64,000 nt of DNA from Candidatus Omnitrophota bacterium (lineage in GTDB: Bacteria > Omnitrophota > Gorgyraeia > Duberdicusellales > 4484-171), in NCBI GenBank assembly GCA_003154195.1, contig PMCS01000030.1:123446-187445 (forward strand), in the 5' to 3' direction. A program made the position numbers and the translations under genes. Below are positions 20,216 through 39,625 of the stretch, in pieces. The notes below the pieces were generated by a model, which did not search any database, was not told the origin of the DNA, and saw only the letters and a program-made list of their open reading frames with translations. The first letter of the stretch is position 1, and the number at the start of each line of letters is the position of its first letter.

Positions 20216-21436
20216 ATGCCCCAATACCTCTACGTTGCTAAAACAAAAGACGCGCGTCAGATAAAAGAGAAAGAAGAAGCCGGCTCCCGGGAAGAGCTGG
20301 TGGCGCGGCTGCGCAGCCGCGGGCTGTTTATTATCTCGCTGGCGGAGGTGCAGGTTCAGAAAGGTCCCACGCTTTTTTTTATGAAGAAAAGCAAGCGCGG
20401 ATCGGTCAATCTTTACGACCTGACGCTTTTTTCGAGGAACCTGGCTACTACCTTGTCGAGCGGCGTAACATTATTGCGCAGCCTGGAGATACTCGCCGTT
20501 CAAACCGAGAGCGCTAAATTGGAAAAAATACTGAAAGCCTGCTCCGGATACATAAAAGGCGGGCTTTCTTTAAGTGATGCCATCGCCAAGTACCCCAATG
20601 TTTTTTCGCCGCTCTGGCGGGGTATTGTGGAAGTGGGGGAGGCCAGCGGAAATTTACCGTCGGTTCTGGAGAGATTGGCGGATTATTTAGAGATGCGCAT
20701 GGATTTTGAGCGTAAAGTGCAGAGCGCGATGGTATACCCGGCGATAATTCTTGTCGTTGCGGGCGGCGCGATGGTTGTTTTTTTTAAGTTTATCCTTCCT
20801 AAATTTACGGAAATATTCAAGCAATTTAATATGAAATTACCCCTGTCGACGCAGATTATGTTCACGATCAGCCAAATTTTTGAAAAATATTTTATTTTAC
20901 TTTTGGGAGGAACTGTAGGTTTAGTGATTGCCGGTATTTATGCGATGAAACAGCCCGAAGTAAGAAAGGTGTGGGATAGAGTCAGCCTTAAATTACCGAT
21001 ACTGGGCCCTCTTCTCACTCTCACTGCTTTGGAGAGGTTTACTTCTACGATTAATATTCTTTTAGACAGCGGGCTTCCCCTGGTATTCAGCCTCGAAGTT
21101 TCGGCGAGAGGTATCGGCAATTCTCTTTTGGAACATAGCATCCTGGCGGTTAAAGATAAGGTTAAGGAGGGTTCTCCTTTATCCGACGAATTAAGGAAGC
21201 TTAATATTTTTCCCGCTCTCGTATCGGAGATGTCCAAAATCGGCGAAGAAACCGGCAGTATGCCTGAGGTGTATAAAAAAATATCAGTATATTATCAAAA
21301 AGAATTATCGGCGCGCGTCGAGCGTCTTGTCGCGGCGTTCGAGCCGTTAATGATTGTTTTTATGGGACTGCTTATCGGAGCAATGGTTATTTCTTTATTT
21401 CTGCCCCTGTTTAAGCTTAGCTCGCCTGGCGGGTAA
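20216..21436 (+). CDS. pilC: type IV pilus inner-membrane platform protein PilC (T2SS-F family)
   Basis: Two T2SSF repeats and three TM segments. 406 aa. Confidence 0.9.
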   Translation: MPQYLYVAKTKDARQIKEKEEAGSREELVARLRSRGLFIISLAEVQVQKGPTLFFMKKSKRGSVNLYDLTLFSRNLATTLSSGVTLLRSLEILAVQTESAKLEKILKACSGYIKGGLSLSDAIAKYPNVFSPLWRGIVEVGEASGNLPSVLERLADYLEMRMDFERKVQSAMVYPAIILVVAGGAMVVFFKFILPKFTEIFKQFNMKLPLSTQIMFTISQIFEKYFILLLGGTVGLVIAGIYAMKQPEVRKVWDRVSLKLPILGPLLTLTALERFTSTINILLDSGLPLVFSLEVSARGIGNSLLEHSILAVKDKVKEGSPLSDELRKLNIFPALVSEMSKIGEETGSMPEVYKKISVYYQKELSARVERLVAAFEPLMIVFMGLLIGAMVISLFLPLFKLSSPGG

Positions 21437-21603: not shown

Positions 21604-21632
21604 TTTGACTTTTGCCAATGGAATATTATGAT
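21604..21632 (+). promoter_or_regulatory. putative sigma70 promoter (TTGACT-N17-TATGAT) for the pilin gene
   Basis: A -35/-10-like pair about 75 nt upstream of ATG 21709. Confidence 0.3.
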
Positions 21633-21708
21633 TAATAGTATAGAAATCAACAAAAAGTATTTCATTTATACATACCGGAAAGTTAATAAAGAAAAAAGGA
21701 GGATACTT

Positions 21709-22143
21709 ATGAGAAGAAAAAGCTTTACGCTTTTAGAATTGGTAATCGTTCTTATTATTCTCGGCGTTTTAGCTACATTAGGCATTTCGCAATACATGAG
21801 AAGTATTGAGCAATCTCGCGGCGCCGAAGCGCGGTCAATATTGGGCCAGATTCGCACTTCTGTTTTAGGCTATTATATGTCAATAAGTACTCTGACCGGT
21901 ATCGATAATACTGCTGTCGGCATAGGAACAACTAACGATCTTATTCCTTCTTCTTGCCGAGCCAGTCATTATTTTAACTACGCTTTGAGCCTTATAACTT
22001 CTACCACTCTTAGAATTGATGGAACTCGTTGCAGCGCCGGCGGCAAGACGCCCACGGCTAGTGTTGGTATAGGGGGTATTCAGTTGACGGTTGACGCTAA
22101 CGCCGGTACCGATACCTGGTCGATGTCCCCGGCTTATAGGTGA
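21709..22143 (+). CDS. type IV pilin (prepilin-type N-terminal domain), major pilin candidate
   Basis: RBS AAGGAGG, then MRRKSFTLLELVIVLIILGVLA (class III signal peptide with E at +5; Ser at -1). The ORF track start at 21628 lies upstream of the RBS. Confidence 0.7.
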   Translation: MRRKSFTLLELVIVLIILGVLATLGISQYMRSIEQSRGAEARSILGQIRTSVLGYYMSISTLTGIDNTAVGIGTTNDLIPSSCRASHYFNYALSLITSTTLRIDGTRCSAGGKTPTASVGIGGIQLTVDANAGTDTWSMSPAYR

Positions 22144-24442: not shown

Positions 24443-25124
24443 TTATTTTCCAGCAGATTATTTCTTTGAATGTTCCCCAGATTGTTTTTAAATTAGCTAC
24501 TTTAGATTTACCGCCGGCGCGGGGGAGGTTGACGATGGAGATTTTTTTAAAGCGAAATCCTTGTTGGTAGGCTTTGATCACTAATTCAAAATTGAAGACG
24601 AATCGAGAATTTACGCATATTTTATCAAGAATTTTACGATGGAACAAATAAATCCCTTCGAGTGTGGGAAATTTACCGAAAAGGAGCCGCAATAACAGCC
24701 TTACCCCGGCGGACATGATTTTTCGGAATAATGAAGTATTGCGTTGATGATAAACCGTCGTGACGAAGTCAACGCTGTCGTCAAGCGCTTTCGCGCATTG
24801 GCCAAGCGCGGCAGGTTCGATTTGGCCGTCGGCAGGAAAAAATGATATCCAGCGATAACGCGCCTGCCGGAAACCGTCCGCCAGGCATTTGCCGATACCT
24901 TGTTTGAGCGTATGGGTAATAATAGTTACGTGGGTGTTTTTTTTAGACAGGCGGTCGGCAATTTTTGGCGTTTCATCGGTTGAGCCGTCGTTGATAATAA
25001 TAATTTCGTAGGCGCTGCCGGATATTGTTTGTAATACGGCGTTGACACTTTCCGCAACTTCGCCGAGGGTTTTTTCTTCGTTATAGGCGGGGATAATAAC
25101 CGAAAGATCAATCATAATATTCAA
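24435..25124 (-). CDS. family 2 glycosyltransferase (polyprenyl-phosphate sugar synthase / Dpm1-like)
   Basis: VIIPAYNEE ... INDGSTDET (GT-A DxD region). It overlaps the downstream gene by 8 nt. Confidence 0.8.
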   Translation of the reverse strand: MNIMIDLSVIIPAYNEEKTLGEVAESVNAVLQTISGSAYEIIIINDGSTDETPKIADRLSKKNTHVTIITHTLKQGIGKCLADGFRQARYRWISFFPADGQIEPAALGQCAKALDDSVDFVTTVYHQRNTSLFRKIMSAGVRLLLRLLFGKFPTLEGIYLFHRKILDKICVNSRFVFNFELVIKAYQQGFRFKKISIVNLPRAGGKSKVANLKTIWGTFKEIICWKING

Positions 25125-27058
25125 TTACGAATGGGAAGAACAATTTCGCCGATGGCAACGCTTCCGTCGGGGTTAATCGATTTTTGGCTTATTTTTTGAT
25201 CGAAAGTAAAAAATGTGCCTCTGTCCATCGAAGCTAATGTTAAGAGCAGAGCATATTTTCCTTTCGGTAAGTAACCCGGTATGGTCATAATATAGTAATC
25301 GTTGATAGTTTCGTCTTTTTGCCAGCGCTGGGTAGGATATATTCCATAACAAAGTTGGCGGATAGTTTCGTAGCGGGTTTTGCCGTTCTGGTCGACTAAT
25401 CGGATAAGCATCCCCAGGGTATTGTCATTTGGGTTTAAACAGCGCCAGGTAAAAGAAAATTTAATTGCCGTTGTCCCGCCTGCCTTTACCGGCGAATAAT
25501 TATAATCCTGGAGGCTGATTTTACCGGCAAGCGCGGCTGACGGTGTTTTATCAAATCCGCGTATCTTCGCCGGGATAATTTCGTATAATTTTTTATTGCC
25601 GGGGTGATTTTTTTTAAAAAGGGCGATGCTGTCAATAAAATCTATTACTTGCCAATTATTTCCTTCAAGAAAACGACGCATGTTTAAATCGGAATCAGGT
25701 TTGCGAAAGTATATCGTTGTATAGATATCATTAAAATCAATAAGCGCGTATTCGATATTGTCGGGGATAGCGTAAGGAACCCCGGGCCTCAGTTCGCCCT
25801 GGTAGATATAGTGGAAGGCATATAAGTAGCGCCGGTTCGACAGGTGGCTTAAAAATTCAAAAGTGCTCACAACCGCCGCGTTTTTGGGAATCATGGCAAT
25901 CAAGCGTTGTTTTTGTTTGGCGGTATTTTCTCTCAATAGGAGCACTAATTCTTTATTCATAGAATGGATCGGGCCGTAGATTATGTTGCTGATAATCGGC
26001 AGGATAATAATGTAGGAAAAGATGCGGCGCGGCAGATTGCCGCCGGAAAATTTTAACAAGCCGTATATCGCGGAAATATAAATGAAGGGGGTCATCGCGA
26101 TAGTGTAATGATTGACGATACTATGTTCAGCTATTCGTGTCGAAAGAAGGTGCTGCAGGATATTGAGCGCGCAAATCATTAATTCTTTGAGGGCAAAAAG
26201 AGAAAAGAAACCAGCGGGCATTAATATTTGCAGGATGAAATAACCGTTATCTTCTTGCAATAATGGTTGGAATAATATGGATGGCCGTGTAAGGATATTT
26301 TTAAATATTTCCGGAAAATCTTTTCCTAAATAGGCGTAAAACTGTTCATAGTTTACACCGGTGCGAAAATGCGGCAGAAAAACAAAAATCCCCAGATATA
26401 ACCAGACGAGGCTTATCGTTATGGGCAGTATTGACCAGCGCCACGGTTTTTTATCCAGCGCCGCGTATATTCCTATCATCAGCGTAACCAGGGTCATATC
26501 CAGGCGGCAAGCAATCGTGAGCAGGATACAGGTTATGTACCACCAGAAGCGGTCAGTCTTTAAACAATAAAATGCCCATAACAGCGTCAACCCGGCTAAG
26601 ACTAAATCAAAGTATTCAAAAAGCGCAAGAAACCATAGCGCGGGATATAAAAGATAAGAAACGGCAAACGCGGCGCCTAACCTTGGGGAGTGAGCGTGGC
26701 GGCCGATTAGGAATATCGGCATCGCTCCGGCGGCGAGGATGATTACTTTTATTATCAACATTGCCTGCGGAGAACAAAAAAACAAAGCATAAAGAAGGCT
26801 AAAGGGATAAGCAATAATTTCAATAGCATTACCCCATATCGTGGTATTGTCGATAATCGAAGCGCGGGGGCTGCCATGCAGGATATTCCAATATTTTTGC
26901 AAATGGATGGCAAAATCAAAATCAATATGAGAAAATGAGTTGTATTTCCATAAGCAGATGGCGCTGAAAATCACTGTATAGATCAGCATTCCCAGCAATA
27001 CAATAAAAAAGTATTTTTGTTTTAAAATGTAATTAAACGCTATTTTAAGATTTTTCAT
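25121..27058 (-). CDS. large polytopic membrane protein (DUF2079-like, putative GT-C-type glycosyl transferase)
   Basis: About 12 predicted TM helices plus a C-terminal beta-rich soluble domain. The ORF extends to 27208, but Met 27058 (MKNLKIAF...) is preferred because it leaves a divergent intergenic region. Confidence 0.45.
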   Translation of the reverse strand: MKNLKIAFNYILKQKYFFIVLLGMLIYTVIFSAICLWKYNSFSHIDFDFAIHLQKYWNILHGSPRASIIDNTTIWGNAIEIIAYPFSLLYALFFCSPQAMLIIKVIILAAGAMPIFLIGRHAHSPRLGAAFAVSYLLYPALWFLALFEYFDLVLAGLTLLWAFYCLKTDRFWWYITCILLTIACRLDMTLVTLMIGIYAALDKKPWRWSILPITISLVWLYLGIFVFLPHFRTGVNYEQFYAYLGKDFPEIFKNILTRPSILFQPLLQEDNGYFILQILMPAGFFSLFALKELMICALNILQHLLSTRIAEHSIVNHYTIAMTPFIYISAIYGLLKFSGGNLPRRIFSYIIILPIISNIIYGPIHSMNKELVLLLRENTAKQKQRLIAMIPKNAAVVSTFEFLSHLSNRRYLYAFHYIYQGELRPGVPYAIPDNIEYALIDFNDIYTTIYFRKPDSDLNMRRFLEGNNWQVIDFIDSIALFKKNHPGNKKLYEIIPAKIRGFDKTPSAALAGKISLQDYNYSPVKAGGTTAIKFSFTWRCLNPNDNTLGMLIRLVDQNGKTRYETIRQLCYGIYPTQRWQKDETINDYYIMTIPGYLPKGKYALLLTLASMDRGTFFTFDQKISQKSINPDGSVAIGEIVLPIRN

Positions 27059-27251
27059 ATCATCAACAATACACTGTTTAAAAGGATTAGTCAAGAATTT
27101 TCCGGTAAGAAAATTACGCCGGATAGAGACGGCCAGGTATTCGGCGAAAAGCTTTTTTGTTTTTGTCGTTAGCCTGCCGCTAAACACCTCGCCGGTAATT
27201 TTGCACAAAACAGTTGCAGTTTAAGGTTGGCCGGTGTATTATTATTTCTTG

Positions 27252-28823
27252 ATGAAGAATAACGAGAAAGTAAATATAGGAATGATCGGGTTGGGTTATT
27301 GGGGAAAGAATATTTTACGTAATCTTGTCGAGTTGGGGGCAGTATACGGAGCCTGTGACTCCAACGCCGGTGTTATCGCCGAACGGAAAAAAGATTTTCC
27401 CAATTTGACCTATTTTTCCGATTATAAACAATTGCTGGCCGATGATCGGATGAAGGCGGTTGTTATTGCCGCTCCCGCGGCAGCTCATTATCAATTAGCC
27501 AAGGACGCGCTTTGCCGGGATAAGGATGTTTTTGTGGAGAAGCCTTTAGCGCTTACTTATGAACACGGACGGGAGCTGGCAGATCTGGCGGAACGCAAAG
27601 GAAAGATTTTGATGGTCGGCCATATCCTGAATTACCATCCTGCCTTATTGAAAATGAAAGATTTAATCGCCGGGGGCGATTTAGGGAAGATCCAGTATGT
27701 ATATTCAAATCGTTTGAATATAGGGAAGCTTAGAGTTGAAGAAAATATTCTTTGGAGTTTCGCTCCCCATGATATTTCGGCGATGCTGATGCTTTTAGAA
27801 GAAGAACCGGTAAGGGTGACTTGCTTTGCCGCTGATTATCTTAACGAAAATGTTTACGACGTTACTTTAAGTTCTTTCGAATTTAAAAATAAAGTTAAAG
27901 CTCATATTTTTGTCAGCTGGCTGCACCCCTTTAAAGAACAAAAACTTGTTGTTGTCGGTTCTAAGGCAATGGCGGTTTTTGACGACCTGGCTAAAGAAAA
28001 ACTTATCGTTTACCCTCATACGATCGAGTGGCGGAACGGCAAAATCCCCGTTTCTAACAAAGCGGAAGGTATAAGCGTTGACGTAGAGGAAAAAGAGCCC
28101 TTAAAAGAGGAGCTCAAACATTTTATAGAGTGTGTTGCCAGTCGCAATACCCCCCGGACCGACGCTAAAGAGGCTTTGCGTGTTTTAAAAGTTCTTGAAG
28201 CCGCGGAGGAGTCAATTAGATCATGCTCCGGAGCGCGAACGGCGATGGAAAATAAAAAACATTTTATCCATTCCAGCGCGGTTATCGATGAAAACGTTGA
28301 TATCGGCGAGGGGACGAAAATCTGGCATTTTTCTCATATTCTGAAAAATGTTACTATCGGTAAAAATTGCGTTGTCGGCCAGAATGTGATGATCGGGCCC
28401 GATGCCGTAGTCGGCAGCAATTGCAAAATACAGAACAATGTTTCGCTTTACAAAGGCGTAACGCTTCAGGATGACGTTTTTTGCGGCCCGAGTTGCGTGT
28501 TTACCAACGTTATCAATCCTCGTTCGTTTATCGAACGTAAAGATGAATTTAAAGATACGCTGGTTAAAAAAGGCGCTACCATCGGCGCCAACGCGACGAT
28601 TATCTGCGGTGTTGATATCGGCAGCTACAGCTTGGTCGGCGCGGGGGCGGTGGTTACCAGGGATGTAAGCGATTATGCGCTTGTCGCGGGAGTCCCGGCT
28701 AAGCAAATCGGCTGGGTATGCGTTTGTGGAACGACGTTAAGTTTACGCAAAAATAACGCAAAATGTATCAGGTGCCAAAGGCGTTATAAATTTAATGCCG
28801 GCAGGTTAAGCGAAAAAAAATAA
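27252..28823 (+). CDS. fusion protein: Gfo/Idh/MocA sugar dehydrogenase (WbpB-like) plus left-handed beta-helix N-acetyltransferase (WbpD-like), with a C-terminal Cys4 ribbon
   Basis: N-terminal [13 protein letters not shown] Rossmann domain; C-terminal hexapeptide repeats ([25 protein letters not shown]...) ending in [20 protein letters not shown]. Confidence 0.7.
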
Positions 28824-28841
28824 GCCGGGATATCGGATGCG

Positions 28842-29801
28842 ATGGACAAAATATTTCATAGAGACAGTATTTTTAAAAATACCCGAAAAGCCTGGCAAAA
28901 GTATAAAGATAACCCCAGGGTTTTTAATTTCCCCGAAAGAATTACCGTCGAAATAACCAACCGGTGCAATCTGAAGTGTTTTATGTGCCCCCGTAATTTT
29001 GTCGATATGAAGTTGGGCGATATGCAACCGGCGTTATTTAAAAAAATAATTAATGAGGCGGCGAATTTTTTACCGGTAGCGCTTGTGCCGTTTTTCCGGG
29101 GAGAATCGCTGCTCCACCACGATTTTTTGGAGATGCTTTCCTATGCTAAGGGAAAAGGCATCGCGCCGATCCAGCTTGCGACTAACGCTTATTTTTTAAA
29201 TTCTACCATTGCGAGAAGAATCATCGATCTTGAGATTGATTTTATTTCCTTCAGCGTCGACGCCAACAGTCCGCGGATTTATGAAAAGATCAGGAAGAAC
29301 TCGGATTTTAAAAGAGTATTCTCCAATATATTGGATTTTATCTCGCATAAGAAAAATAAAGGCGCAAAGTTGCCTTTTCTCCAGGTCTCCGCGGTAAAAA
29401 CCGATAAGAACAAGCTTTTTATCTCTGATTTTATAAATTTTTGGCGCGATAAAGTCGATAGGGTGCGAATATACCGGCAGCATTCCCTGAACGGAGAGTT
29501 GGGCCGCGTTAAGGCCGTTTCCGGCAGGAGGAAACCTTGTTTAAAGCTGCTTACCGATATGGTGGTTTATTGGAATGGCGACGTAGCGCTTTGCAACCAT
29601 GATTGGCAGAGAAATGTTTTTATTGGAAATGTCAACAACCGTTCGTTGGAGGATATCTTCGGCGGCGCGGTTTATAACTGTATACGGGGAAAACATCTTA
29701 ATAATACCCTGAAAGGTTTTATGCCGTGTGAATCTTGTTCGCATTGGAAAGTCCACTATCAAAAAAGAACACTCATGGGTGAAGCCTATGAAAAAATTTA
29801 A
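28842..29801 (+). CDS. radical SAM domain protein with a SPASM-like C-terminal Cys cluster
   Basis: CNLKCFMC is a CxxxCxxC motif; the C-terminal region CLKLL...CNHDW...CESCSHW carries additional cysteines. Confidence 0.7.
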   Translation: MDKIFHRDSIFKNTRKAWQKYKDNPRVFNFPERITVEITNRCNLKCFMCPRNFVDMKLGDMQPALFKKIINEAANFLPVALVPFFRGESLLHHDFLEMLSYAKGKGIAPIQLATNAYFLNSTIARRIIDLEIDFISFSVDANSPRIYEKIRKNSDFKRVFSNILDFISHKKNKGAKLPFLQVSAVKTDKNKLFISDFINFWRDKVDRVRIYRQHSLNGELGRVKAVSGRRKPCLKLLTDMVVYWNGDVALCNHDWQRNVFIGNVNNRSLEDIFGGAVYNCIRGKHLNNTLKGFMPCESCSHWKVHYQKRTLMGEAYEKI

Positions 29802-30909
29802 TTTTCCCATTATCAAGCCTTACGCGTGGGGTAAAGAATTGTCTAATGTCGCGAAGGTTTTGGCCAGCGGTTGGTTGACGCAAGGCCCTTATGCCGATAG
29901 ATTAGAAAAGAAGATAAACGCGTATATCGGTTCGCGGTTCTCTTTTCTGGTTAATTCTGCGACCTCAGGCTTGATCGCGGGCCTGGAGGCTTTAGGTTTA
30001 CAAAGCGGCGATGAGGTAATCGTGCCGTCTTTTACTTTTCCCGCCACCGCTAATTCTGTGGTTATCGCCGGAGGAAGACCGGTTTTTTGCGATATCGATT
30101 TGGCGACGTTTAATATTGACGCGGACAAGATTGAAGCTTTGATTACCGGAAAGACGAAAGGGATTATCGCGGTGCATGCCTTCGGGCTTGCGGCGGATAT
30201 GGCCGCGGTTAGAAAAATTGCCGGTAAACACCGTTTATTTATTATTGAGGATGCCGCTTGTTCTTTCGGCGCGGAATACCAGGGAAGGAAAACCGGTTTA
30301 TTTTCCGATGTCGGCGTATTTTCTTTTCACCCCCGTAAAATAATAACCTGCGGCGAAGGAGGGTGTGTTGTTACGAACAATAGAGAGACAGCGAAAAAAA
30401 TTGCTTGCTTGCGCAATCATGGCGAGTACGATAAGAAATTTATAAACCGCGGATATAATTTTCGTTTGTCGGATATCCAGGCGGCGGTTTTGGACGCTCA
30501 GATGGAGAGAGTCGACGCAATCATCGAACGGCGCATTAAACTTTCCCGAAATTACCAAGCTTTGCTTAAGCCTTGGGAGAAAAGAGGAATTTTGAAAGCG
30601 CCCTTATGCCCGCGGGGATACCGGCATATTTATCAATCTTATGTCGTTTTGCTGGCGGATTATGTTGACCGGGATAAAGTAAAGATGTTTTTAAAGGGGA
30701 AAAGCATAGAGACACAGTTCGGCACCTATTGCGTTCCCGCGCTTGATTACTATCTTAAAAATTTTCCTGCGCCGAAGGAGGCATACGCTGACGCGTATTA
30801 CGCGTTTGCCCATTCCCTTGCGCTTCCTTTATATCATACATTGAGCGCCGGCGACCAGGAATATATTATCGGCAGGCTAAACCAGGCGATTAACATGGTT
30901 GCGCGATAA
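29788..30909 (+). CDS. DegT/DnrJ/EryC1/StrS-family PLP-dependent sugar aminotransferase (WbpE-like)
   Basis: Fold-type I aminotransferase motifs for nucleotide-sugar amination. Start taken at MKKFNFPIIKPYAWG. Confidence 0.85.
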   Translation: MKKFNFPIIKPYAWGKELSNVAKVLASGWLTQGPYADRLEKKINAYIGSRFSFLVNSATSGLIAGLEALGLQSGDEVIVPSFTFPATANSVVIAGGRPVFCDIDLATFNIDADKIEALITGKTKGIIAVHAFGLAADMAAVRKIAGKHRLFIIEDAACSFGAEYQGRKTGLFSDVGVFSFHPRKIITCGEGGCVVTNNRETAKKIACLRNHGEYDKKFINRGYNFRLSDIQAAVLDAQMERVDAIIERRIKLSRNYQALLKPWEKRGILKAPLCPRGYRHIYQSYVVLLADYVDRDKVKMFLKGKSIETQFGTYCVPALDYYLKNFPAPKEAYADAYYAFAHSLALPLYHTLSAGDQEYIIGRLNQAINMVAR

Positions 30910-30970
30910 CGCAACGATTATAATACAGAAAAATGCGTAAGTTGTATTTTTTCACTTGGCGGGAGGCGGT

Positions 30971-32863
30971 ATGTGCGCGATAACGGGGATTATAAACCTC
31001 ACGAAAAACCCGGTCGATAGGAAGATACTGTGGGATATGACCGACGCGTTAGCCCATCGCGGCCCGGATGGCCGAGGTATCTATATCGATCATTATCTTG
31101 GTCTGGGCCATCGGCGTTTGGCGATAATTGATTTATCTGATGCGGCATCGCAGCCGATGCGTAGCGCGGATAAAAATTTTGTCGTAAGCTATAACGGCGA
31201 AATATATAATTTTTGCGCGTTACGCAGCCAGCTAAAGCATCGTTACGATTTTCGTTCGCGTTCCGATACGGAAGTAGTGGTTAACGCTTTCGCGGCGTGG
31301 GGCGTTAATGCCCTGAAAAAGTTCAACGGGATGTTCGCGCTGGCGTTGTGGGACAAGCGCAGCAGGACTCTTACCCTGGCGCGGGACAGGTATGGAATAA
31401 AACCGTTGTATTACTGGCGCAACGAAAAAGTTTTTATTTTTGCTTCGGAAATAAAGGCCTTTCTAAAGCATCCGGAATTTAAAGCCGTCGTGGATCGCGA
31501 AGCGCTTCTCGAATATTTTACTTTCCAAAATAATTTTACCGATAAAACATTGTTTAATGGGGTCAAGCTCTTGCCCGCCGGTTCTTTTTTACAGGTTTCC
31601 CTTAAAGAAGGAGCAGCGATCAATGCGCATTGTTATTGGGATTTTTGTTTTAAAGAAGAAAAATCATTGAAAAATAACAATGAGTACTATGAAGAGCTTG
31701 ACCGGTTATTTAAACGGGCGGTAAAACGCCAGCTTGTCGGCGACGTGGAGGTAGGGTCGTTTTTGAGCGGGGGGATCGACTCCGGTTCGATCGTCGCCGC
31801 GGCGAGCCATTATCAACCGGGCTTAAAGACTTTTTGCGTGGGGTTTGACCTTTCTTCGGCATCGGGATTAGAGTTGTCGTTTGACGAAAGGAAAAAAGCC
31901 GAGAGGCTTTCTTATCTTTATCAAACCGAGCATTACGAGATGGTTTTGAAATCCGGGGACATGAAACGCTGTCTTCCCCGATTGATATGGTCACTGGAGG
32001 ACCTTCGCCTGGGGCAGAGTTACCCCAATTTTTACGCCGCTAAAATTGCTTCACGTTTTGTTAAGGTCTGCCTCTCCGGTATCGGCGGAGACGAGTTGTT
32101 CGCGGGTTATCCGTGGCGATATTATCGTACCATACACAGCAAGAACTTTACCCATTATATCGAAGAGTATTATCGATATTGGCAGAGGCTTGTGCCTAAT
32201 AAGATTATCAGGAATTTATTTTCTCCGGTATGGGATAGCGTGAAGCATGTTTGGACCCAGGATATATTCAAGAATGTTTTTCCTCCCCGGATGTCTTTGC
32301 CTCGCACGGCGGAAGACTATATAAACCATTCTTTATATTTTGAAGGGAAGACATTTTTAAACGGCCTTTTTATCGTCGAAGATAAGCTGAGTATGGCCAA
32401 TAGTATGGAAGTGCGCGTTCCCTTTTTTGATAACGATCTTGTCGATTTTGCCATGAAGATTCCCGTGAAACTAAAATTAAAAAACATAAAAAAGGTTTTA
32501 AGCATTGATGAAGATGAGCTTGCGAAAAGGGAAAAATATTTTGCAAGGATGCGCGATGGGAAAATTATATTGCGAAAAGTCTTCGGCAAATACGTTGACG
32601 ACAGTATAATCAAACAGTATAAGCAGGGGTTCAGCGGCCCGGATGCGAGCTGGTTCAGGGGGGAGAGTATCGAATATGTTAAGACGCTATTGTTAAGCCG
32701 GAAGGCGAATATCTATGATTATTTTGATTACCGGACGGTTCAGTCGTTGATTGCGGAACATCTCGGCGGTAAATTTAACCGGCGTCTTTTTATCTGGTCT
32801 CTTTTGTGCTTCGAATGGTGGCTTAAGATTTTTATATCGGGCAAAGCGCAGGAAAAACTTTAA
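30971..32863 (+). CDS. asparagine synthase (glutamine-hydrolysing) family amidotransferase (WbpS-like)
   Basis: The N-terminal nucleophile Cys follows Met (MCAITGI) and a PP-loop SGGIDSG is present. 631 aa. Confidence 0.85.
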   Translation: MCAITGIINLTKNPVDRKILWDMTDALAHRGPDGRGIYIDHYLGLGHRRLAIIDLSDAASQPMRSADKNFVVSYNGEIYNFCALRSQLKHRYDFRSRSDTEVVVNAFAAWGVNALKKFNGMFALALWDKRSRTLTLARDRYGIKPLYYWRNEKVFIFASEIKAFLKHPEFKAVVDREALLEYFTFQNNFTDKTLFNGVKLLPAGSFLQVSLKEGAAINAHCYWDFCFKEEKSLKNNNEYYEELDRLFKRAVKRQLVGDVEVGSFLSGGIDSGSIVAAASHYQPGLKTFCVGFDLSSASGLELSFDERKKAERLSYLYQTEHYEMVLKSGDMKRCLPRLIWSLEDLRLGQSYPNFYAAKIASRFVKVCLSGIGGDELFAGYPWRYYRTIHSKNFTHYIEEYYRYWQRLVPNKIIRNLFSPVWDSVKHVWTQDIFKNVFPPRMSLPRTAEDYINHSLYFEGKTFLNGLFIVEDKLSMANSMEVRVPFFDNDLVDFAMKIPVKLKLKNIKKVLSIDEDELAKREKYFARMRDGKIILRKVFGKYVDDSIIKQYKQGFSGPDASWFRGESIEYVKTLLLSRKANIYDYFDYRTVQSLIAEHLGGKFNRRLFIWSLLCFEWWLKIFISGKAQEKL

Positions 32864-32878
32864 CCGGAGAGGTTTCTT

Positions 32879-33454
32879 ATGCGAAGACAAAATAAAATTT
32901 CGCACAAACAGATTATTGCCGCGCATCATTTATTGCGCGATGATATCTTAAGAAAATGGAAAAGGGTTTTGCCGCTTAACGAGGCGTTTGGCGATAGATG
33001 GGAAAAGGCTCGTTATCTGGGTTTTGGAAAAAATACGAGTATCTATGATTCCAGTTTTATTTTCGGCGATGTTAAAGTGGGCGAGAATACCTGGATCGGC
33101 CCGTTTACGCTTTTGGACGGGAGCGCCGGGCTATCGATAGGAAGTTTTTGTTCGGTATCGGCGGGGGTGCAGATATATACCCATGACAGTGTCGCGTGGG
33201 CTATCTCCGGCGGGAAAGCTAAATATGCGTATGCCCCGGTGGCGATCGGCGATTGTTCTTATATCGGGCCAAACGCCGTGATATCTAAAGGCGTGGTTAT
33301 CGGCAATCATTGTATTGTGGGTGCCGGCAGCTTTGTGAATAAGAATATACCATCGTTTTCTGCCGCTTTTGGTATCCCTGTCAAGGTGGTCGGCAGGGTG
33401 AAGATCGATAGGAACGGCGCGGTAACGATAGTCTATAAGAAAAATAAATCATAG
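32879..33454 (+). CDS. hexapeptide-repeat acetyltransferase (WbbJ/LacA-like)
   Basis: Left-handed beta-helix repeats VGENTWIGPFTLLDGSAGLSIGSFCSVSAGVQI. Confidence 0.7.
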   Translation: MRRQNKISHKQIIAAHHLLRDDILRKWKRVLPLNEAFGDRWEKARYLGFGKNTSIYDSSFIFGDVKVGENTWIGPFTLLDGSAGLSIGSFCSVSAGVQIYTHDSVAWAISGGKAKYAYAPVAIGDCSYIGPNAVISKGVVIGNHCIVGAGSFVNKNIPSFSAAFGIPVKVVGRVKIDRNGAVTIVYKKNKS

Positions 33455-33462
33455 GAGATATC

Positions 33463-33873
33463 ATGAGCCATCTTGATACCCGGAAAAGTTTTACGCTTAT
33501 TGAGCTTAGTATTGTTCTTGTTATTTTGGGCGTGTTGGCTACTCTTTCGCTTAATTATGCAGGGATTATGCACGAAAAGACGCTTGGCCGGGAAGCGGCG
33601 TCGCAGTTGAAACTTATCCAGTCCGCGTTAGAAGCTTTGCGCGTCGAAACCAATGCCGACAGCTATACGCCTTGCGGGCCTACCGCGGATTGCAACGCTA
33701 AGCTTCGTATTATACTGCCCGGTAACGGTAATTGGATTTATTCGGTTATGGCAGCAGGAAACGGCGCCGGCGCTACTTATACGGCTACGGCAACCCGGCA
33801 GGGAATAGCATTATGCACCTATACCATCAATCAAGCGCAGACAGATCCGGTGAATAATGGTTGCCAGCCGTAG
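33463..33873 (+). CDS. type IV pilin-like protein (prepilin-type N-terminal domain)
   Basis: RBS AGGAGA, then MSHLDTRKSFTLIELSIVLVILGVLATL. 136 aa with a Cys pair near the C-terminus. Confidence 0.6.
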   Translation: MSHLDTRKSFTLIELSIVLVILGVLATLSLNYAGIMHEKTLGREAASQLKLIQSALEALRVETNADSYTPCGPTADCNAKLRIILPGNGNWIYSVMAAGNGAGATYTATATRQGIALCTYTINQAQTDPVNNGCQP

Positions 33874-33914
33874 CGTCGGGCGATTGGCAGAAAGATTGTG
33901 CTTTGGCCGAATTT

Positions 33915-35348
33915 ATGAATAAAACCAGTCGTTATGATTTAATCAGCCTGAGCGTGATTGCGCTCGTCAGTATTTTTTCGCTCTGCCGGTTTAATTATCT
34001 CCCCCAATTTATTGACGGTTATTATCATTTATCCGTGGCTAACGCTTTTTTGAAATCCGGCGGCTGGGTAGGCTGGTCCTGGTGGGATTTTGCGCCGTTA
34101 GGCCGGCCGCATCTATATCCGCCTTTATATCATTTTATCTTAGCGGGCTTAATCAAATCCGGGATCAGCGGTATCAACGCCGTGCGGCTTACCGAAGTTT
34201 CAATTGTTCCTTTATTTTTTATAAACGTATGGTATGTTTTTCGGCGGCTCACCGGCGTTAAATTCGCTTTTTTTACTACCTTTATCTTAAGCGGATTTTT
34301 CCCTTTTTATTCCTCGGTTTCCGCCAATGTCCCGGCCAGCCTTGCCTTAATTTTTGGGGTTTTTACCTGGTTTTTTACGGCGCGACGACAAACCCGCCGC
34401 GCCGTGTTGATGCTAACTCTGTGTTTTTATACTCATGCGGCAATACCCTGGCTATTTTTTATTTCTCTTGTTTTTGCCGCGGTCTTCGATCAAGATTATC
34501 GAAAAATTATTTTAAAAATAATTATCCTCAGCCTTATTTTTTATTCGCCCCTCCTTGATCATCAAATTAAATACCTGAGTTATCTTAACATAAAGGTATG
34601 GGCTGAAGCGTCTTATACTTATGTTAATATTTTTGTCATGCTTTTCGGATTATTCTCGTTATTCAAAAATTTACGAAATAACACCCTGGCTTACCGATTT
34701 TTTTTAGGATATGTTTTAGCCGGGGCGGTTATCTTTGCGAAATATCCCTATCGTTTTTTCAGCGCGCAAGGTTTTATCGGTCCGGCGCTTATCAGCGCGT
34801 GGCTGCTTGAGCAGGCGGTGAAGCCGTTGAAAGGTTTAGGTTTACATTTATTTGTCGTTGCCGTAAGCGTTTATTTGTTTTTATTCAGTTCTATACTCAG
34901 TATTAATAGGGGAGACCCTAAGGTTGAGCTGATGGCGTCAACTTGCTATAAATTTATCAACGGCAGTATGCTTGATGTCGGTCAATATCAATCATCATTT
35001 TATCCCGGGTATTATAATGATGTTATCGCAGTGATTAAGAAGAATACTTCCCCCGATGACATAATTTCTTCCAACGTTATGGTTATTTCTCAGATTTTTT
35101 CAAGTCTTTGCAATCGGCCTTGCGCCAATTCCATGCTTATGGAGACGCGTCCGAAAAATATTTCCCATGGTTATGAGAATTCGAAAATTATCGTATGGCT
35201 TAAAGATGTGGCTGGAAGCAAAGGTGATTTTAAACATACGGGATGGGAAAAAATATTAGAAAATGACATTTTATATGTTTTTTTGAATCATAATTGCCGC
35301 GTGAAGGCGGTTATCCTGCCGGCTAAGATAAGATTTATCCGCGTATAG
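33915..35348 (+). CDS. polytopic membrane protein immediately downstream of the pilin; candidate pilin glycosyl/oligosaccharyl-transferase-like enzyme
   Basis: At least ten predicted TM helices plus a C-terminal soluble domain. The ORF track TTG at 33861 was replaced by ATG 33915. The functional call is an inference from synteny. Confidence 0.4.
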   Translation: MNKTSRYDLISLSVIALVSIFSLCRFNYLPQFIDGYYHLSVANAFLKSGGWVGWSWWDFAPLGRPHLYPPLYHFILAGLIKSGISGINAVRLTEVSIVPLFFINVWYVFRRLTGVKFAFFTTFILSGFFPFYSSVSANVPASLALIFGVFTWFFTARRQTRRAVLMLTLCFYTHAAIPWLFFISLVFAAVFDQDYRKIILKIIILSLIFYSPLLDHQIKYLSYLNIKVWAEASYTYVNIFVMLFGLFSLFKNLRNNTLAYRFFLGYVLAGAVIFAKYPYRFFSAQGFIGPALISAWLLEQAVKPLKGLGLHLFVVAVSVYLFLFSSILSINRGDPKVELMASTCYKFINGSMLDVGQYQSSFYPGYYNDVIAVIKKNTSPDDIISSNVMVISQIFSSLCNRPCANSMLMETRPKNISHGYENSKIIVWLKDVAGSKGDFKHTGWEKILENDILYVFLNHNCRVKAVILPAKIRFIRV

Positions 35349-35416
35349 GAAGAATTTGTCGCTATGTTTGTCGCCGGGGCGGTAGTATGGTATAATTTAG
35401 ATAGGGGATAGGGGAT

Positions 35417-35863
35417 ATGTTAACCAAAAAAAGCCCATTTTTTAGAGCATTCTTCCGGTTGAGGAAGGCTACCGGTTTCATCGAACTTATTGTGGCGGCG
35501 CTTATTTTATCCGCTGTGGTGGCCGGGCTTCTGTCTTCTTTTATCTCGGTGCGCAGTTACATCACCCATTCCAACAAACGGCTGGTATCGGCTAATCTGG
35601 GAAGAAGTATTTTGAGCCGGCTTGGCGGATGTGTCAGCGAGGCTTCATGGAACGTTAGCGGCACCGCGCTCTACGCGCCGCCGGGCCAAGCGTGGCAACC
35701 CCATACTGCCGGCGATGTGGCGGTGGGTTTAGGGCCGATTGATAATATAAATTACGATCCTGCTCCTGCCGGTTCTACCGGTTATCGGGTGCGGCGGGTC
35801 GAGACGCCGGCGGGCGACGAACGTTATCGCGAAGTCGAGGTAAATATTACCTATCCCGACTAA
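35417..35863 (+). CDS. minor pilin / pseudopilin (prepilin-type N-terminal cleavage/methylation domain)
   Basis: The G|FIELIVAALILSAVVAG motif. Confidence 0.6.
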   Translation: MLTKKSPFFRAFFRLRKATGFIELIVAALILSAVVAGLLSSFISVRSYITHSNKRLVSANLGRSILSRLGGCVSEASWNVSGTALYAPPGQAWQPHTAGDVAVGLGPIDNINYDPAPAGSTGYRVRRVETPAGDERYREVEVNITYPD

Positions 35864-35935: not shown

Positions 35936-36622
35936 ATGGATTATCGGATTCTCGGTTTTCTTTCAAAATATTCCCAAAAAACAAAACGGCTGTATTTTTT
36001 TCCTACCTGCCGGCAGTCCGGTCGGAACCGAAAAAATGCGTCATGCTTGCCTGACGGTAGTCAGGAATTTTTCCGGTTTATAAAATCCGTTACGTTAATC
36101 GAATTGATAATTACGATGACTCTTTTCAGCGTGATCATTATTGCCGCCGGCTCTTTTGAGATCACCGCTAACCGGCTTTTTCTTTCTTCGGAAAGAAAAG
36201 CGGCGGTGCTTAATGAGATGACTTATGTTTTAGAGCATATCAATAAAAGTTCCCTCCGGGTGCATAGTATGGGCGGCGGTAGCGGCGTTCAAGTTACGCC
36301 CAATACGAGGATAGCGTTTAGGTTGGATAATAATCCGCCGACGCCGCTTGTCTTTACCGACGATATATGGGTAGCCTATCAATTTGATACTGCGACGAGT
36401 AATATAAGTTATTGTCCCAACTGGAATACAGCAGGGGCAGGGTCATGCACCGGAGCTTGGGAAGTATTAACTTCAAGATTAAATAGTGTGACTATTGCCA
36501 CTACTCCTTACGTCAGTTTGCAGCTTACGGGCGTGTACAATCCGGCGATAGCGAACGATTCCAGCATTAATCCTAACGTAACTGTTCAGACTACTATTTA
36601 TTGTCCCGGTTACTCCTCATAG
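35936..36622 (+). CDS. pilin-like protein with an unusually long leader; the true start is uncertain
   Basis: A KSVTLIELIITMTLFSVIIIAAGS prepilin-like hydrophobic segment follows a 46-aa N-terminal extension. A TTG or other internal start is possible. Confidence 0.4.
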   Translation: MDYRILGFLSKYSQKTKRLYFFPTCRQSGRNRKNASCLPDGSQEFFRFIKSVTLIELIITMTLFSVIIIAAGSFEITANRLFLSSERKAAVLNEMTYVLEHINKSSLRVHSMGGGSGVQVTPNTRIAFRLDNNPPTPLVFTDDIWVAYQFDTATSNISYCPNWNTAGAGSCTGAWEVLTSRLNSVTIATTPYVSLQLTGVYNPAIANDSSINPNVTVQTTIYCPGYSS

Positions 36623-36653: not shown

Positions 36654-36868
36654 ATACCCTCTAACCGGCAAAGCGCTTTAGGCCAATCAGCCAGCCGCCG
36701 AATTGCCTCATAATTAGTATTGCCGCATCAAACACCAGAAGGTTTCAGCGCTTTACCAATACGGGATTATTATTGTTTTATTCTCTTTTAAGCGATAAGC
36801 CCTCCTGGGTAACGCTTATTTATTAGGCAATACTGCGGCGATGTGTTATCTTGCGGTGCCCGAAAAAT

Positions 36869-36877
36869 ATGATATAA
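36869..36877 (+). promoter_or_regulatory. extended -10 element TGATATAAT upstream of the OMP gene
   Basis: Sequence match about 25 nt upstream of ATG 36901. Confidence 0.3.
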
Positions 36878-36900
36878 TCCATATTTATATGGGCGGATCA

Positions 36901-37581
36901 ATGAAAAAAATATTTCTATTTATTTTGTTTATTTCCGGCGTAATTTTTTCTTCGAAAGCGGCGCCGTGTTACGGCACGAGAATGCCCAGCCGGAAGCAAT
37001 TTTTTGCCGGAGCCCAGAGCTATACTATTTTTCAAAGAAAGCTGGAGGGGGATTTCGGCAATCTCCGCAGCCAGCAGGGTTTTTTTACGCTTTCCGGCGG
37101 CCTGAGCGATTGGCTCAGCATCGATTTAAAAATCGGCACGGGAAATATCCTGCAGCACCCGGTCGGCCGGAACGAAATAGATTATCCTACGAGCTTTGCC
37201 GGCGGTTACGGGTATCGCCTGAAATTACTGGATAAAGAAACAACAAAAGCGGTTTTTGGTTTCCAGCATATCAGCGTGCATCCCTATTCTAGGGAAATCG
37301 GCGATGTGCGCAACGAAGCCATTCTTGACGATTGGCAATATTCCCTGCTTGTTTCTCAGCAGGTAAAAACGATTACGCCTTATATCGGCGCGTATTGGTC
37401 GCGTGTTGACTATATCCATCACTGGGATAACGAACATAAACGCAAGATGTCCAGCTTAGCGCATGCGGTCGGCCTGGTCTGCGGCGTTGATTTTGACGTC
37501 ACAAAAAAATCGTGGCTAAATTTAGAGGGGCAGTTTTTTGCCGGCTCCGCCTTTTCCGCAAGTTATAATTATTCATTTTAA
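36901..37581 (+). CDS. outer-membrane beta-barrel protein (hypothetical)
   Basis: Signal peptide MKKIFLFILFISGVIFSSKA, alternating beta-strand pattern and a C-terminal aromatic residue (...YNYSF). Confidence 0.5.
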   Translation: MKKIFLFILFISGVIFSSKAAPCYGTRMPSRKQFFAGAQSYTIFQRKLEGDFGNLRSQQGFFTLSGGLSDWLSIDLKIGTGNILQHPVGRNEIDYPTSFAGGYGYRLKLLDKETTKAVFGFQHISVHPYSREIGDVRNEAILDDWQYSLLVSQQVKTITPYIGAYWSRVDYIHHWDNEHKRKMSSLAHAVGLVCGVDFDVTKKSWLNLEGQFFAGSAFSASYNYSF

Positions 37582-38167
37582 CTAAAAAACTCGTTTTCCA
37601 AACGAATTTTTTAGTTAAGAAGGAAAAAATGCCGCCGTTTTTTGAAAGTTTCCTAAAGCCAAAATATAAGGAATAAAATAAATTCCTTGCAGCCGGCTCG
37701 CCTCACGGCGAAGCCGTGGGCTATCCCTGGGGCAAGCCCGCAGCCCCGTTTCCCTGATATATTGATTAAGGTTCGGGGCGTCCCGTACCTTAGTATACTA
37801 TCTAGGGTAACGGGACAGGGTATTTCGCTGGCTGCATGGCGCTTTGCGCCACCGGAATTTCTTTTATTTGTTTTGTCCGCCACAAATAATAAATTATTCA
37901 GGCGGATCCGCCTTCGGCGGAAAAACCTATGCTGCGGTTTTTCCGCTTGCAAAGCGAGACTTCGCCAAAAGATGGAAACTTTTGGCGAGCAAACTTTCCC
38001 TTTCGTTTCCGAAACGGGAAATTGGATTTTCCAATTTCCCGCGGCAAAAGACGCCATTCATCCCCGCTGCAAGCAGCGGGAAATTCTGGCGGATTTTGTT
38101 AAAAAGAGATTTGGGCGGCATTTTTTCCCGGAGCCGGGAAAATGCGCCAAACGCATTTTACCGGCTA

Positions 38168-39625
38168 ATGATAAAGAAAACCTCAGATTTTCAAACTTAC
38201 CTCGAAGATACATCCAATTTGAAAGGGCATGCTGAATGCCTTTATCTTCCCGAATCTAAAGAAGAAGTCCGGTTCTTAATCGGCGAGTGCAATCGGTCAA
38301 AGTCCCCCCTGACGGTTTCCGCGGGGAGGACCGGGACTACCGCCGGTTGCGTCCCCTTGTCCGGAGCCTTACTTTCTTTGCAAAATCTCAATAAAATTAT
38401 CAATATTGATGCCGGGGTAAAAGAAGCGCGCGTGGAAGCGGGAGTTTTGCTGGAGGATTTGTTGAAAGAGGCAGTTAAATTTAATCTTACCTTACGGGCG
38501 TCGCCTACCGAGCCTCTGGCTTATGCCGGTGGGGCGGTTTCAACCGCCGCTTCCGGCGTGCGGGGCTTTGGCTATGGTTCAATACGAAACTATGTCCGCG
38601 CGATCGAGATTGTCCTGGCGGGAGGCGATGTTCTTAAGATACAACGGGGAAAAATTTTTTCCCTGGGGAGGGCTTTCGATTTCACCTGCGGCGGTAAAAG
38701 ATTTAAATTCAATCTCCCTTCCTACGACATGCCGCCGGTTAAGTCTCAGGCCGGTTTTTTTGTTAAAGATAATATGGACTTGATCGATTTATTCATCGGC
38801 AGTGAAGGCGTGCTGGGGATTATTACCGAATGCTGTCTTTCGCTGCAAACAATCGCGCCGTACATTATCGACGGGTTGGTTTTTTTTGACTGTGAAGAGA
38901 AAGCGTTGGGGTTCAGCGGGAGCGTAAAAAGCCTTAAGCGGGATAACTTGATAAATCCGGCGTCGCTGGAGTTTTTTGATCATAATTCTTTAGAGTTGTT
39001 AGGGCCGGTTTATTCTTTTATCCCCGCTTCGGCCGCGGCGGCAATTTATTTCGAGCAGGAAGCCGAAGATAAATCGTCGTCGGAGCAATTAATGGATACC
39101 TGGGCGAAGCTTATCGAAAACGGCGGCGCGTCCCTGGATACTTGTATCATCGCCGATAATCCCAATGCCCGCCGGAGCATTTTTGAATTCCGGCATAAAG
39201 TGCCGCAGCTCATCAACGAATTTTTAAGAGCGTACGGCCAACAGAAGATTGCTTCCGATATTGCCGTGCCGCCGGAACATTTTGCGGCGATGTATGAATC
39301 CTATAAATCAACCGCCCGGGAAACGGCTCTGCGATACGTCAATTTCGGCCACATCGGCGAAGGGCACCTGCACTTTAATTTCCTGCCGCGCAGTGACCAA
39401 GAAAGCGTCCGGGCCGGGGAAGGCATCGCCCGCCTTTGCCGTCAAGCGGTTGCCTGGGGCGGGACAGTCTGCGCCGAGCATGGGGTAGGCAAGGTTAAAA
39501 AACCTTACCTTAAGATTATGTACGGCGATAAGCATATTAAAGAAATGGCGGCGTTGAAAAAATATTTCGACCCTAATTGCATACTCAATTTGGATAATAT
39601 ATTTGATAAGGAGTTTTTATTGTAG
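38168..39625 (+). CDS. FAD-linked oxidase (GlcD / D-lactate dehydrogenase-like, PCMH-type FAD binding)
   Basis: FAD_binding_4 motifs (RTGTTAGCVP, GSEGVLGIITE) and a C-terminal FAD-oxidase_C domain. The ORF track extension to 37844 runs through a hairpin-dense leader and was rejected. Confidence 0.75.
   Translation: MIKKTSDFQTYLEDTSNLKGHAECLYLPESKEEVRFLIGECNRSKSPLTVSAGRTGTTAGCVPLSGALLSLQNLNKIINIDAGVKEARVEAGVLLEDLLKEAVKFNLTLRASPTEPLAYAGGAVSTAASGVRGFGYGSIRNYVRAIEIVLAGGDVLKIQRGKIFSLGRAFDFTCGGKRFKFNLPSYDMPPVKSQAGFFVKDNMDLIDLFIGSEGVLGIITECCLSLQTIAPYIIDGLVFFDCEEKALGFSGSVKSLKRDNLINPASLEFFDHNSLELLGPVYSFIPASAAAAIYFEQEAEDKSSSEQLMDTWAKLIENGGASLDTCIIADNPNARRSIFEFRHKVPQLINEFLRAYGQQKIASDIAVPPEHFAAMYESYKSTARETALRYVNFGHIGEGHLHFNFLPRSDQESVRAGEGIARLCRQAVAWGGTVCAEHGVGKVKKPYLKIMYGDKHIKEMAALKKYFDPNCILNLDNIFDKEFLL

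Follow-up and report, generated by a model that had tools for sequence, protein, structure and literature searches.

A predicted GT-C glycosyltransferase of an unnamed Omnitrophota family encoded in a pilin cassette

What is the role of a polytopic membrane protein whose gene lies directly behind a pilin gene, and to which class of enzymes might it belong? This question is raised by a stretch of 64,000 nucleotides (the window) from contig PMCS01000030.1 of a Candidatus Omnitrophota bacterium, in which a prepilin-type gene ending at 33873 is followed by a membrane protein gene that starts at 33915. The glycosylation of pilins alters phage susceptibility, adhesion and immune recognition, and to our knowledge only two types of enzyme glycosylate pilin from a pilin-linked gene, namely the TfpO/PglL-like proteins and TfpW. 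An earlier note on this DNA had likened the gene pair to the tfpO/pglL arrangement and had suggested that the membrane protein, here called X, could be a new pilin-modifying transferase. It was found that X represents an unnamed GT-C family, as judged from a structural model, placed in a pilin cassette of the type known from Pseudomonas.

Both genes of the pair were recovered as open reading frames (ORFs). The gene of X (33915-35348, forward strand, 477 residues) starts 41 bp after the pilin gene and on the same strand. The reading frame also has an alternative start, a TTG at 33861, which accounts for the overlap with the pilin stop codon reported in the earlier note. The ATG at 33915 is the likelier start, since it yields an N-terminus, MNKTSRYDL, that can be aligned with the annotated one of a homolog with 46% identity (MRRYNHFDL, locus L016). 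A search at E ≤ 1e-3 gave 107 homologs, all unnamed and almost all from Candidatus Omnitrophota, and 143 loci of the family were confirmed in GTDB species representatives, where its distribution is nearly phylum-wide within Omnitrophota. These numbers indicate that X is a real gene and not a chance ORF. The claim that X has no obvious homolog therefore holds for named proteins only, as there are more than 100 unannotated ones. The nearest relative shares 49% identity. On the basis of these sequence matches, X is the founder of an unnamed family restricted to Omnitrophota.

Scans of X against Pfam and NCBIfam returned nothing usable, the only match being DUF6541 at E = 0.024, and the family profile gave chance matches only (E > 0.1) when it was compared with all PDB sequences. 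X itself did not match the PMT_2 or ArnT models of Pfam and NCBIfam at E ≤ 1. Pfam PMT_2 was matched by 19 of 78 relatives (E ≤ 0.01), and one of them, P0076, was the sole relative above the cut-off (30.8 bits against 26.1), with the match extending over profile positions 3-153 of 160. Through these relatives, the nearest sequence family of X is the PMT_2/PMT (GT39) clan, which also holds ArnT (GT83). No TPR repeats were matched in X or in the 78 relatives. The possibility that X is a local paralog of the PMT/TPR or DUF2079 proteins of the window was examined by hhalign with the family profile and was discarded (probability below 1%).

A structural model of X was built with AlphaFold2 from a 78-sequence alignment, and it reached a predicted local distance difference test (pLDDT) score of 94 and a predicted template modelling (pTM) score of 0.93. 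The comparison of the model with the PDB by Foldseek gave 28 significant matches, all of them GT-C enzymes (AglB, STT3, PglB, ArnT, ALG9, ALG12, DPY19 and AftA), with E values from 1.7e-6 to 8e-4 and, with one exception, template modelling scores (TM-scores) relative to the query of 0.45-0.59. Of PglL and ArnT, with which the earlier note had proposed to compare a predicted structure, only ArnT is among these matches. Below the GT-C matches, the E value leaps to 0.1 (GPI transamidase PIG-U).

According to a structural study of AftB (PMC12041299), the GT-C_A enzymes have transmembrane (TM) helices 1-7 in common. In these enzymes, TM1 and TM2 are separated by two juxtamembrane (JM) helices, the first of which (JM1) bears at its tip an Asp that is essential for catalysis, and TM3 is kinked. 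In the model of X, as assigned by DSSP, TM1 comprises residues 6-23, JM1 34-48, JM2 71-81 and TM2 86-112, while TM3 is broken into two stretches, 115-127 and 129-137. JM1 starts with D34. The modelled layout thus displays the GT-C_A hallmarks, with two JM helices, a kinked TM3 and an Asp at the JM1 tip. This Asp is present in all 77 aligned sequences that have a residue in the column, and it forms part of the family motif P-x-F-[ILV]-D-x-Y-Y-H. The other conserved residues are Y36-Y37-H38, G50, P61, Y68-P69-P70, H73, Y172, H174 and R280, together with N387, R401, E410 and N458 in the C-terminal soluble domain, which is modelled as an alpha/beta unit of about 150 residues. The clusters of Lys and Arg at 110-116, 157-162, 196-201, 252-261 and 303-306 all fall in predicted cytoplasmic loops, and the conserved polar residues are all on the predicted periplasmic side.

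The positive-inside rule and the model together argue for 11 TM helices with the N-terminus inside, close to the estimate of about ten helices plus a C-terminal soluble domain in the earlier note. Taken with the model, these features indicate that X is very probably a GT-C glycosyltransferase with a periplasmic active site. By analogy with the known enzymes, D34 would be the catalytic residue, and R280, H174 and Y172 may be candidates for phosphate binding. The donor would be a polyprenyl-phosphate-linked sugar.

The product of the upstream gene (33463-33873, forward strand, 136 residues) begins MSHLDTRKSFTLIELSIVLVILGVLATL and carries the processing motif KS|FTLIEL. It scored 26.6 bits with Pfam N_methyl PF07963 (curated cut-off 21.2) and 22.7 bits with NCBIfam TIGR02532 (curated cut-off 16.3), in agreement with its description as a prepilin-type protein, and in one source it bears the public name prepilin-type cleavage/methylation protein. 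A strong ribosome-binding site, AGGAG, lies 7 nt upstream of the ATG. Four Cys residues are found in the globular part of the protein.

The gene of X sits in a type IV pilus (T4P) cluster that is split by an 11-kb glycan-biosynthesis island. Neither this setting nor the two further pilin-like ORFs at 35417-35863 and 35936-36622 had been mentioned in the earlier note. The last sugar gene, the 33463 pilin gene, X and the two minor-pilin-like genes follow each other in this order. The run of sugar-modification genes (27234-33454, forward strand) ends with an acetyltransferase gene that stops 8 bp before the pilin gene. With the island removed, the order would be pilB-pilC-pilin-pilin-X, as in L016.

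Genomic contexts of the family were surveyed in 80 loci from species-representative genomes. Three of them (L016, L066 and L069) were linked to T4P genes, and in two of these X stands directly after a pilin gene. L016 shows the order pilB-pilB-pilC-pilA-pilA-X, followed by genes for a TPR membrane protein, a YfhO-family protein (1e-29) and a GT2-methyltransferase. In L066, whose copy is 26% identical to X, the order is pilB-pilB-pilC-pilin-X, with minor pilins on the opposite strand and then pilM-pilN. L069 consists of a sugar nucleotidyltransferase/kinase fusion, X, pilC, a sigma-54-type regulator and a pilin. Sugar-activation or glycosyltransferase genes adjoin X in three of the four pilus-linked loci, counting the window.

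In a neighbour-joining tree, each pilus-linked copy of X nests among truA-linked copies. The smallest clade that joins the window and L016 also holds truA-linked genes in 100 of 100 bootstraps, and the nearest relative of L016 is the truA-linked L012, at 57% identity as against 46% to the X of the window. L066 and L069 were separated in 35 of 100 bootstraps and may share one event. The nesting and the bootstraps point to at least three independent pilus associations, namely those of the window, of L016 and of L066/L069. As a background, pilin-like ORFs occurred 3 times in 779 kb of other flanks. For pilin adjacency to occur at least twice in 10-20 independent relocations, the Poisson P is roughly 0.001-0.004, a rough figure because the number of relocations is an estimate, and one from which the window was omitted because it had been selected for its pilin adjacency. 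The independence of the pilus-linked cases and the sugar-biosynthesis genes around the locus in the window rescue the idea of pilin modification, in spite of an association that is weak in the family as a whole.

In the proposed mechanism, X would span the inner membrane 11 times with its N-terminus inside, and loop 1 with its two JM helices would be periplasmic. D34 at the tip of JM1 would act as the catalytic residue, while Y36-Y37-H38, the GRPHLYPP segment, Y172, H174 and R280, together with N387, R401, E410 and N458 of the C-terminal domain, would form the pocket for donor and acceptor. The island would supply a modified amino sugar, and its ArnC-like GT2 protein would act as the polyprenyl-phosphate sugar synthase. 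X would then move the sugar from the flipped lipid-linked donor onto Ser or Thr of one or more membrane-anchored pilins. The transfer would take place in the periplasm before pilus assembly, in a manner analogous to that of TfpW. That the pilin or pilins are the substrate of X, in a TfpW-like role, is proposed with a likelihood just short of an even chance, the acceptor being suggested by gene order and its recurrence.

Several observations weigh against this proposal. The sequence asd-truA-X was found in 41 of the 80 loci, often with overlapping stop and start codons, and a transaldolase (TAL)...X...SMC block in 12 more; the further contexts include SecA-Lnt-X, FolD-X, hexokinase-X and RpoD-X. 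From these mostly housekeeping positions, the family behaves like a housekeeping envelope gene whose substrate need not be a pilin. The best relative, at 49% identity, is not near enough to show whether the arrangement of the window is conserved. The tree from which independent associations were counted is a neighbour-joining tree on distances and not a maximum-likelihood one. No glycosylation site could be predicted, and no flippase was identified near X. Three features described for TfpW are absent from X as well. In place of the DDX motif, X has I-D-x-Y-Y-H (a DD within the first 80 residues was seen in 9 of 78 relatives); the loop-4 proline motif YX6PFX7P is present in 1 of 78 relatives; and the large C-terminal periplasmic TPR domain is lacking. 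Finally, a protein with the TfpW architecture is encoded in the same window (22442-24442) and could be the pilin transferase instead of X.

Of the remaining loci of the survey, 3 adjoin other glycosyltransferase genes, 1 adjoins RNase G, 17 have other contexts and 3 have flanks that were too short to judge. The dominant and apparently ancestral position is asd-truA-X, and pilin adjacency is not a trait of the family. With regard to the suggestion of a new pilin-modifying transferase, the glycosyltransferase fold and a conserved, predicted periplasmic catalytic loop were borne out and the role is plausible, but the association with pilins is weak (3 of 80 loci T4P-linked against 41 of 80 with asd-truA-X).

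The most serious alternative is that X is a general or housekeeping glycosyltransferase of the envelope, whose acceptor is lipid A, lipopolysaccharide (LPS) core, another glycolipid or glycan, or many periplasmic proteins, and that its adjacency to a pilin gene is incidental. Under this explanation, the placement of X would be a by-product of the entry of a glycosylation island into the pilus cluster, and the pilin would be modified by the GT-C protein at 22442-24442, or by nothing. It would agree with the 53 of 80 loci in conserved housekeeping blocks, with the further loci after SecA-Lnt, FolD, hexokinase and RpoD, with the nearly phylum-wide occurrence, and with the three loci (L067, L073 and L085) in which X stands by glycosyltransferase genes and no pilus genes. 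ArnT, a lipid A transferase, was moreover among the best size-matched structural matches (TM-score relative to the target of 0.50-0.51), and the window already holds a protein of TfpW architecture. On the other hand, adjacency to pilin or pilC arose independently at least three times, far above the background density of pilins, and in the window X lies between pilin and minor-pilin-like genes and not inside the island. Type IVa pili are almost universal in Omnitrophota (PMC10066038), so that a phylum-wide enzyme is compatible with a pilus role and could serve the pili. An envelope enzyme with an incidental pilin neighbour is a substantial possibility, if on balance somewhat doubtful.

This explanation and the pilin-substrate proposal would coincide in part if X were an O-glycosyltransferase acting on a broad range of proteins, pilins among them. 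More generally, it is possible, though rather doubtful, that this uncharacterised phylum-wide GT-C family, for which Pfam, NCBIfam, PDB sequences and CAZy-style classification offer no assignment, serves Omnitrophota as the O-glycosyltransferase of pilins or of periplasmic proteins in general. It would then be a third architecture after TfpO/PglL and TfpW, repeatedly captured into pilin operons with glycan islands.

A non-enzymatic role, either as a transporter or as a structural or chaperone-like accessory membrane protein of the pilin in the manner of TfpY/TfpZ, was also considered, as the accessory genes downstream of pilA do not always encode glycosyltransferases (PMC11841053) and X has no curated family assignment. 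In the structural comparison, transporter folds were reached only at E > 0.2 with TM-scores of about 0.1, so that an unrelated transporter family, one of the outcomes by which the earlier note would have seen its idea refuted, was not obtained. In TfpY-like proteins, three TM segments are contained in about 240 residues, as opposed to 11 in the 477 of X, and the conserved polar residues of X cluster at the catalytic position of GT-C enzymes. This role is very unlikely.

Less likely again is an N-oligosaccharyltransferase of the PglB/AglB/STT3 kind (GT66) acting on Asn sequons. It is suggested by the top Foldseek matches, which were AglB, STT3 and PglB (E 1.7e-6 to 1e-4). However, ArnT, ALG9/12, DPY19 and AftA score almost as well, and the match to the oligosaccharyltransferases is therefore attributed to the shared GT-C core. 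The GT66 motif WWDxG was found in 0 of 78 family members, the C-terminal domain has only about 150 residues, the adjacent pilin has zero N-x-S/T sequons in a motif check, and no PDB chain, oligosaccharyltransferases included, was matched by sequence.

The weakest explanation, and a scarcely credible one, is a TfpO/PglL-type O-oligosaccharyltransferase moving a preassembled undecaprenyl-pyrophosphate-linked glycan onto the pilin, which is suggested by the gene order and the upstream glycan-biosynthesis genes only and is, on the evidence of the model, effectively refuted at the level of the fold: Wzy_C (O-antigen ligase, PF04932) was matched neither by X at E ≤ 1 nor by the 78 relatives at E ≤ 0.01, no O-antigen-ligase-type fold was found among the significant, exclusively GT-C structural matches, and the conserved loop-1 Asp with two JM helices is a GT-C_A feature. 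With GT-C matches and no Wzy_C, the right analogue of the gene pair is pilA-tfpW and not pilA-tfpO, and the profile search against ligase, PglL and GT-C families that the earlier note had proposed led, through the PMT_2 matches of relatives, to GT-C enzymes.

TfpW is the pilin arabinosyltransferase of Pseudomonas aeruginosa group IV strains (Pa5196/PA7). It is a GT-C protein of 646 residues for which 11 TM helices are predicted, and it combines a DDX motif in periplasmic loop 1 with a TPR domain at the C-terminus. ArnT served as the template for its model. Its gene comes directly after pilA, and in some species genes for the biosynthesis of the sugar lie in the same cluster. X is similar in its GT-C fold, its number of about 11 TM helices and a loop 1 with a putative catalytic acidic residue, and ArnT is a close structural template for both proteins. 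The position of the gene right after a pilin gene is shared by the window, L016 and L066. X is shorter (477 against 646 residues), its family is mostly not linked to pilins, unlike TfpW, and the sugar genes near it point to an amino or acetamido sugar, whereas TfpW transfers D-arabinofuranose. X should not be filed as a member of the TfpW family, from which it is set apart by the described motifs and domains and not by an alignment with TfpW.

With TfpO (PilO, P. aeruginosa group I), X has in common that a pilin gene is followed by the gene of a polytopic membrane protein. TfpO and PglL of Neisseria are periplasmic transferases that modify membrane-anchored pilin, and the role of X is alike only as a proposal. 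They are of the Wzy_C type, an unrelated fold and superfamily, whereas X is a predicted GT-C protein without Wzy_C. Undecaprenyl-pyrophosphate-linked units of the O-antigen type are transferred by TfpO/PglL, while the donor of X would be a polyprenyl-phosphate monosaccharide or a pyrophosphate-linked oligosaccharide. Both TfpO and TfpW guard against pilus-specific phages. X resembles ArnT in its similar size and its small C-terminal periplasmic domain; the acceptor of ArnT is lipid A, and ArnT has 13 TM helices as compared with the 11 of X. A further parallel is given by the three-component periplasmic glycosylation systems (GtrA/GtrB/Gtr*, GT136), in which a GT2 polyprenyl-phosphate sugar synthase is combined with a GT-C enzyme acting outside the cytoplasm (PMC11127046). 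The window is similar in having the ArnC-like GT2 protein (24435-25124) and the GT-C protein X; the Gtr/GT136 systems differ in that they modify O-antigens and not proteins, and in their flippase component, for which no counterpart was identified near X.

Omnitrophota are uncultured nanobacteria in which type IVa pili are believed to serve for the attachment to hosts or prey (PMC10066038). Pilin glycosylation would be set in ultra-small, probably predatory or parasitic organisms whose lifestyle depends on these pili. If the family of X glycosylates pili, it would be a new glycosyltransferase family and would open a way to the surface chemistry of organisms that cannot yet be grown. As a small, compact protein with a model of very high confidence, X is tractable for heterologous reconstitution. 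If it is a general envelope transferase instead, it would still represent a phylum-wide GT-C family without a name, for which a profile model would be worthwhile.

The family is not strictly single-copy, since two paralogs were found in one metagenome-assembled genome (CAJVXN01, loci L028 and L050). One of them stands at asd-truA (27% identity to X), and the other (40%) follows the gene of a sulfatase-family (LtaS/EptA-like) membrane protein. The apparent truncation of the copy in L095 is explained by a run of N in the scaffold. A metagenome scan for closer relatives of the lineage gave two loci only, at 44-45% identity, and a lookup of the 495-residue cluster representative returned nothing. 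In the closest relatives (L001, L007, L009, L011, L012, L015 and L076), the order is asd, truA, X, a 160-residue lipoprotein, a metallo-beta-lactamase and xerC, with the truA stop codon overlapping the start of X. Several of these blocks extend with the CCA enzyme, rbfA, nrnA, truB and ribF. The lipoprotein, which lacks a family assignment, is found with X throughout this clade; a check showed that it is not a pilin.

The T4P machinery of the window is encoded on the forward strand and includes a PilM/PilN fusion (13707-15188), a secretin (16056-17645), a PilB/GspE ATPase (18042-19751) and PilC/GspF (20216-21436). Two small ORFs lie between the PilM/PilN fusion and the secretin. A 124-residue protein of the 23S rRNA intervening sequence family (23S-IVS; PF05635, 4e-23) is encoded at 19800-20174, also on the forward strand, and its gene is inserted between those of the PilB-like ATPase and PilC.

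The island holds three genes on the reverse strand. The first (22442-24442), convergent with the pilin gene at 21628, encodes 666 residues in which a GT-C (PMT/PMT_2) membrane domain is followed by C-terminal TPR repeats, according to Pfam matches; this is the architecture of TfpW, and the pilin may be glycosylated by this protein, either in place of X or in addition to it. The second (24435-25124) encodes the GT2 protein of 229 residues, which matched Glycos_transf_2 at 5e-29 and the ArnC model at 1e-17 over residues 6-219. Its best matches are the polyprenyl-phosphate sugar synthases ArnC, PpgS, AglJ and PgfS, and by sequence it is a candidate maker of the lipid-linked donor. Since it lies on the opposite strand and between two other membrane proteins, it may serve those and not X. 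The third gene (25121-27208) encodes a polytopic DUF2079 membrane protein of 695 residues (5e-39), the third large membrane protein of the island.

The genes of the sugar-modification run are all on the forward strand. A GFO/IDH/MocA sugar 3-dehydrogenase is fused to a hexapeptide N-acetyltransferase in a single ORF of 529 residues (27234-28823), which by analogy is WbpB-like plus WbpD-like. It is followed by a radical SAM/SPASM protein (28842-29801), an unusual member of such a run, and then by a DegT-type aminotransferase (29728-30909), an AsnB-type amidotransferase (30956-32863) and a hexapeptide acetyltransferase (32879-33454). Together, the fusion and the DegT-type and AsnB-type genes suggest a di-N-acetylated, possibly amidated sugar of the uronic-acid type.

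A simple motif detector found exactly four prepilin-like ORFs in the window, those at 21628, 33463, 35417 and 35936, all on the forward strand. The one at 21628-22143, RRKSFTLLELVIVLIILGVLATL, stands directly after pilC and is a paralog of the 33463 pilin, with 52% identity across the N-terminal 50 residues, which form the N-terminal helix. The ORF at 35417-35863 (148 residues, containing KATGFIELIVAALILSAVVAG) had no Pfam match and is probably a minor pilin. The ORF at 35936-36622 (228 residues as the longest ORF, containing KSVTLIELIITMTLFSV) matched N_methyl at E = 0.0046, below the cut-off, and is probably a minor pilin too. At position -1 of the prepilin peptidase site, Ser is found in place of the canonical Gly in both the 21628 (RKS|FTLLEL) and the 33463 pilin (RKS|FTLIEL); the usual KG|FTLVE is seen in the pilins that adjoin the homologs of X at L016, L066 and L069. 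In Pseudomonas, Gly at -1 is nearly obligatory for cleavage by PilD, and the Ser in both pilins of the window hints that processing here may be unusual.

The contigs that carry an identical 33463 pilin all belong to one species and thus give no independent evidence for the arrangement. No terminator of the kind described for Pseudomonas cassettes was found between this pilin gene and X in a promoter and terminator scan. Promoter-like sites in the region were not enriched over shuffled sequences (28 against 20.2 ± 4.0). One such site (35368-35396, forward strand; TTGTCG-17-TATAAT with an extended TG, 10 of 12 matches) falls in the 68-bp gap between X and the 35417 ORF, and its location suggests that the minor-pilin-like genes may have their own promoter.

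Downstream of the minor-pilin-like genes, an ORF at 36841-37581 on the forward strand encodes 246 residues with an N-terminal signal-like segment and had no family match beyond Chlam_OMP at E = 0.027. Its gene trails the minor-pilin-like genes in all contigs of the same species, and the product could be an outer-membrane component of the pilus locus. The Rfam scan of the window gave three tRNAs only, all of them far from the locus, and no match in the segment 37600-38240, where overlapping ORFs on both strands do not form a clear gene. This segment lies upstream of an FAD-linked oxidase, which covers 37844-39625 as the longest ORF and whose true start is probably later.

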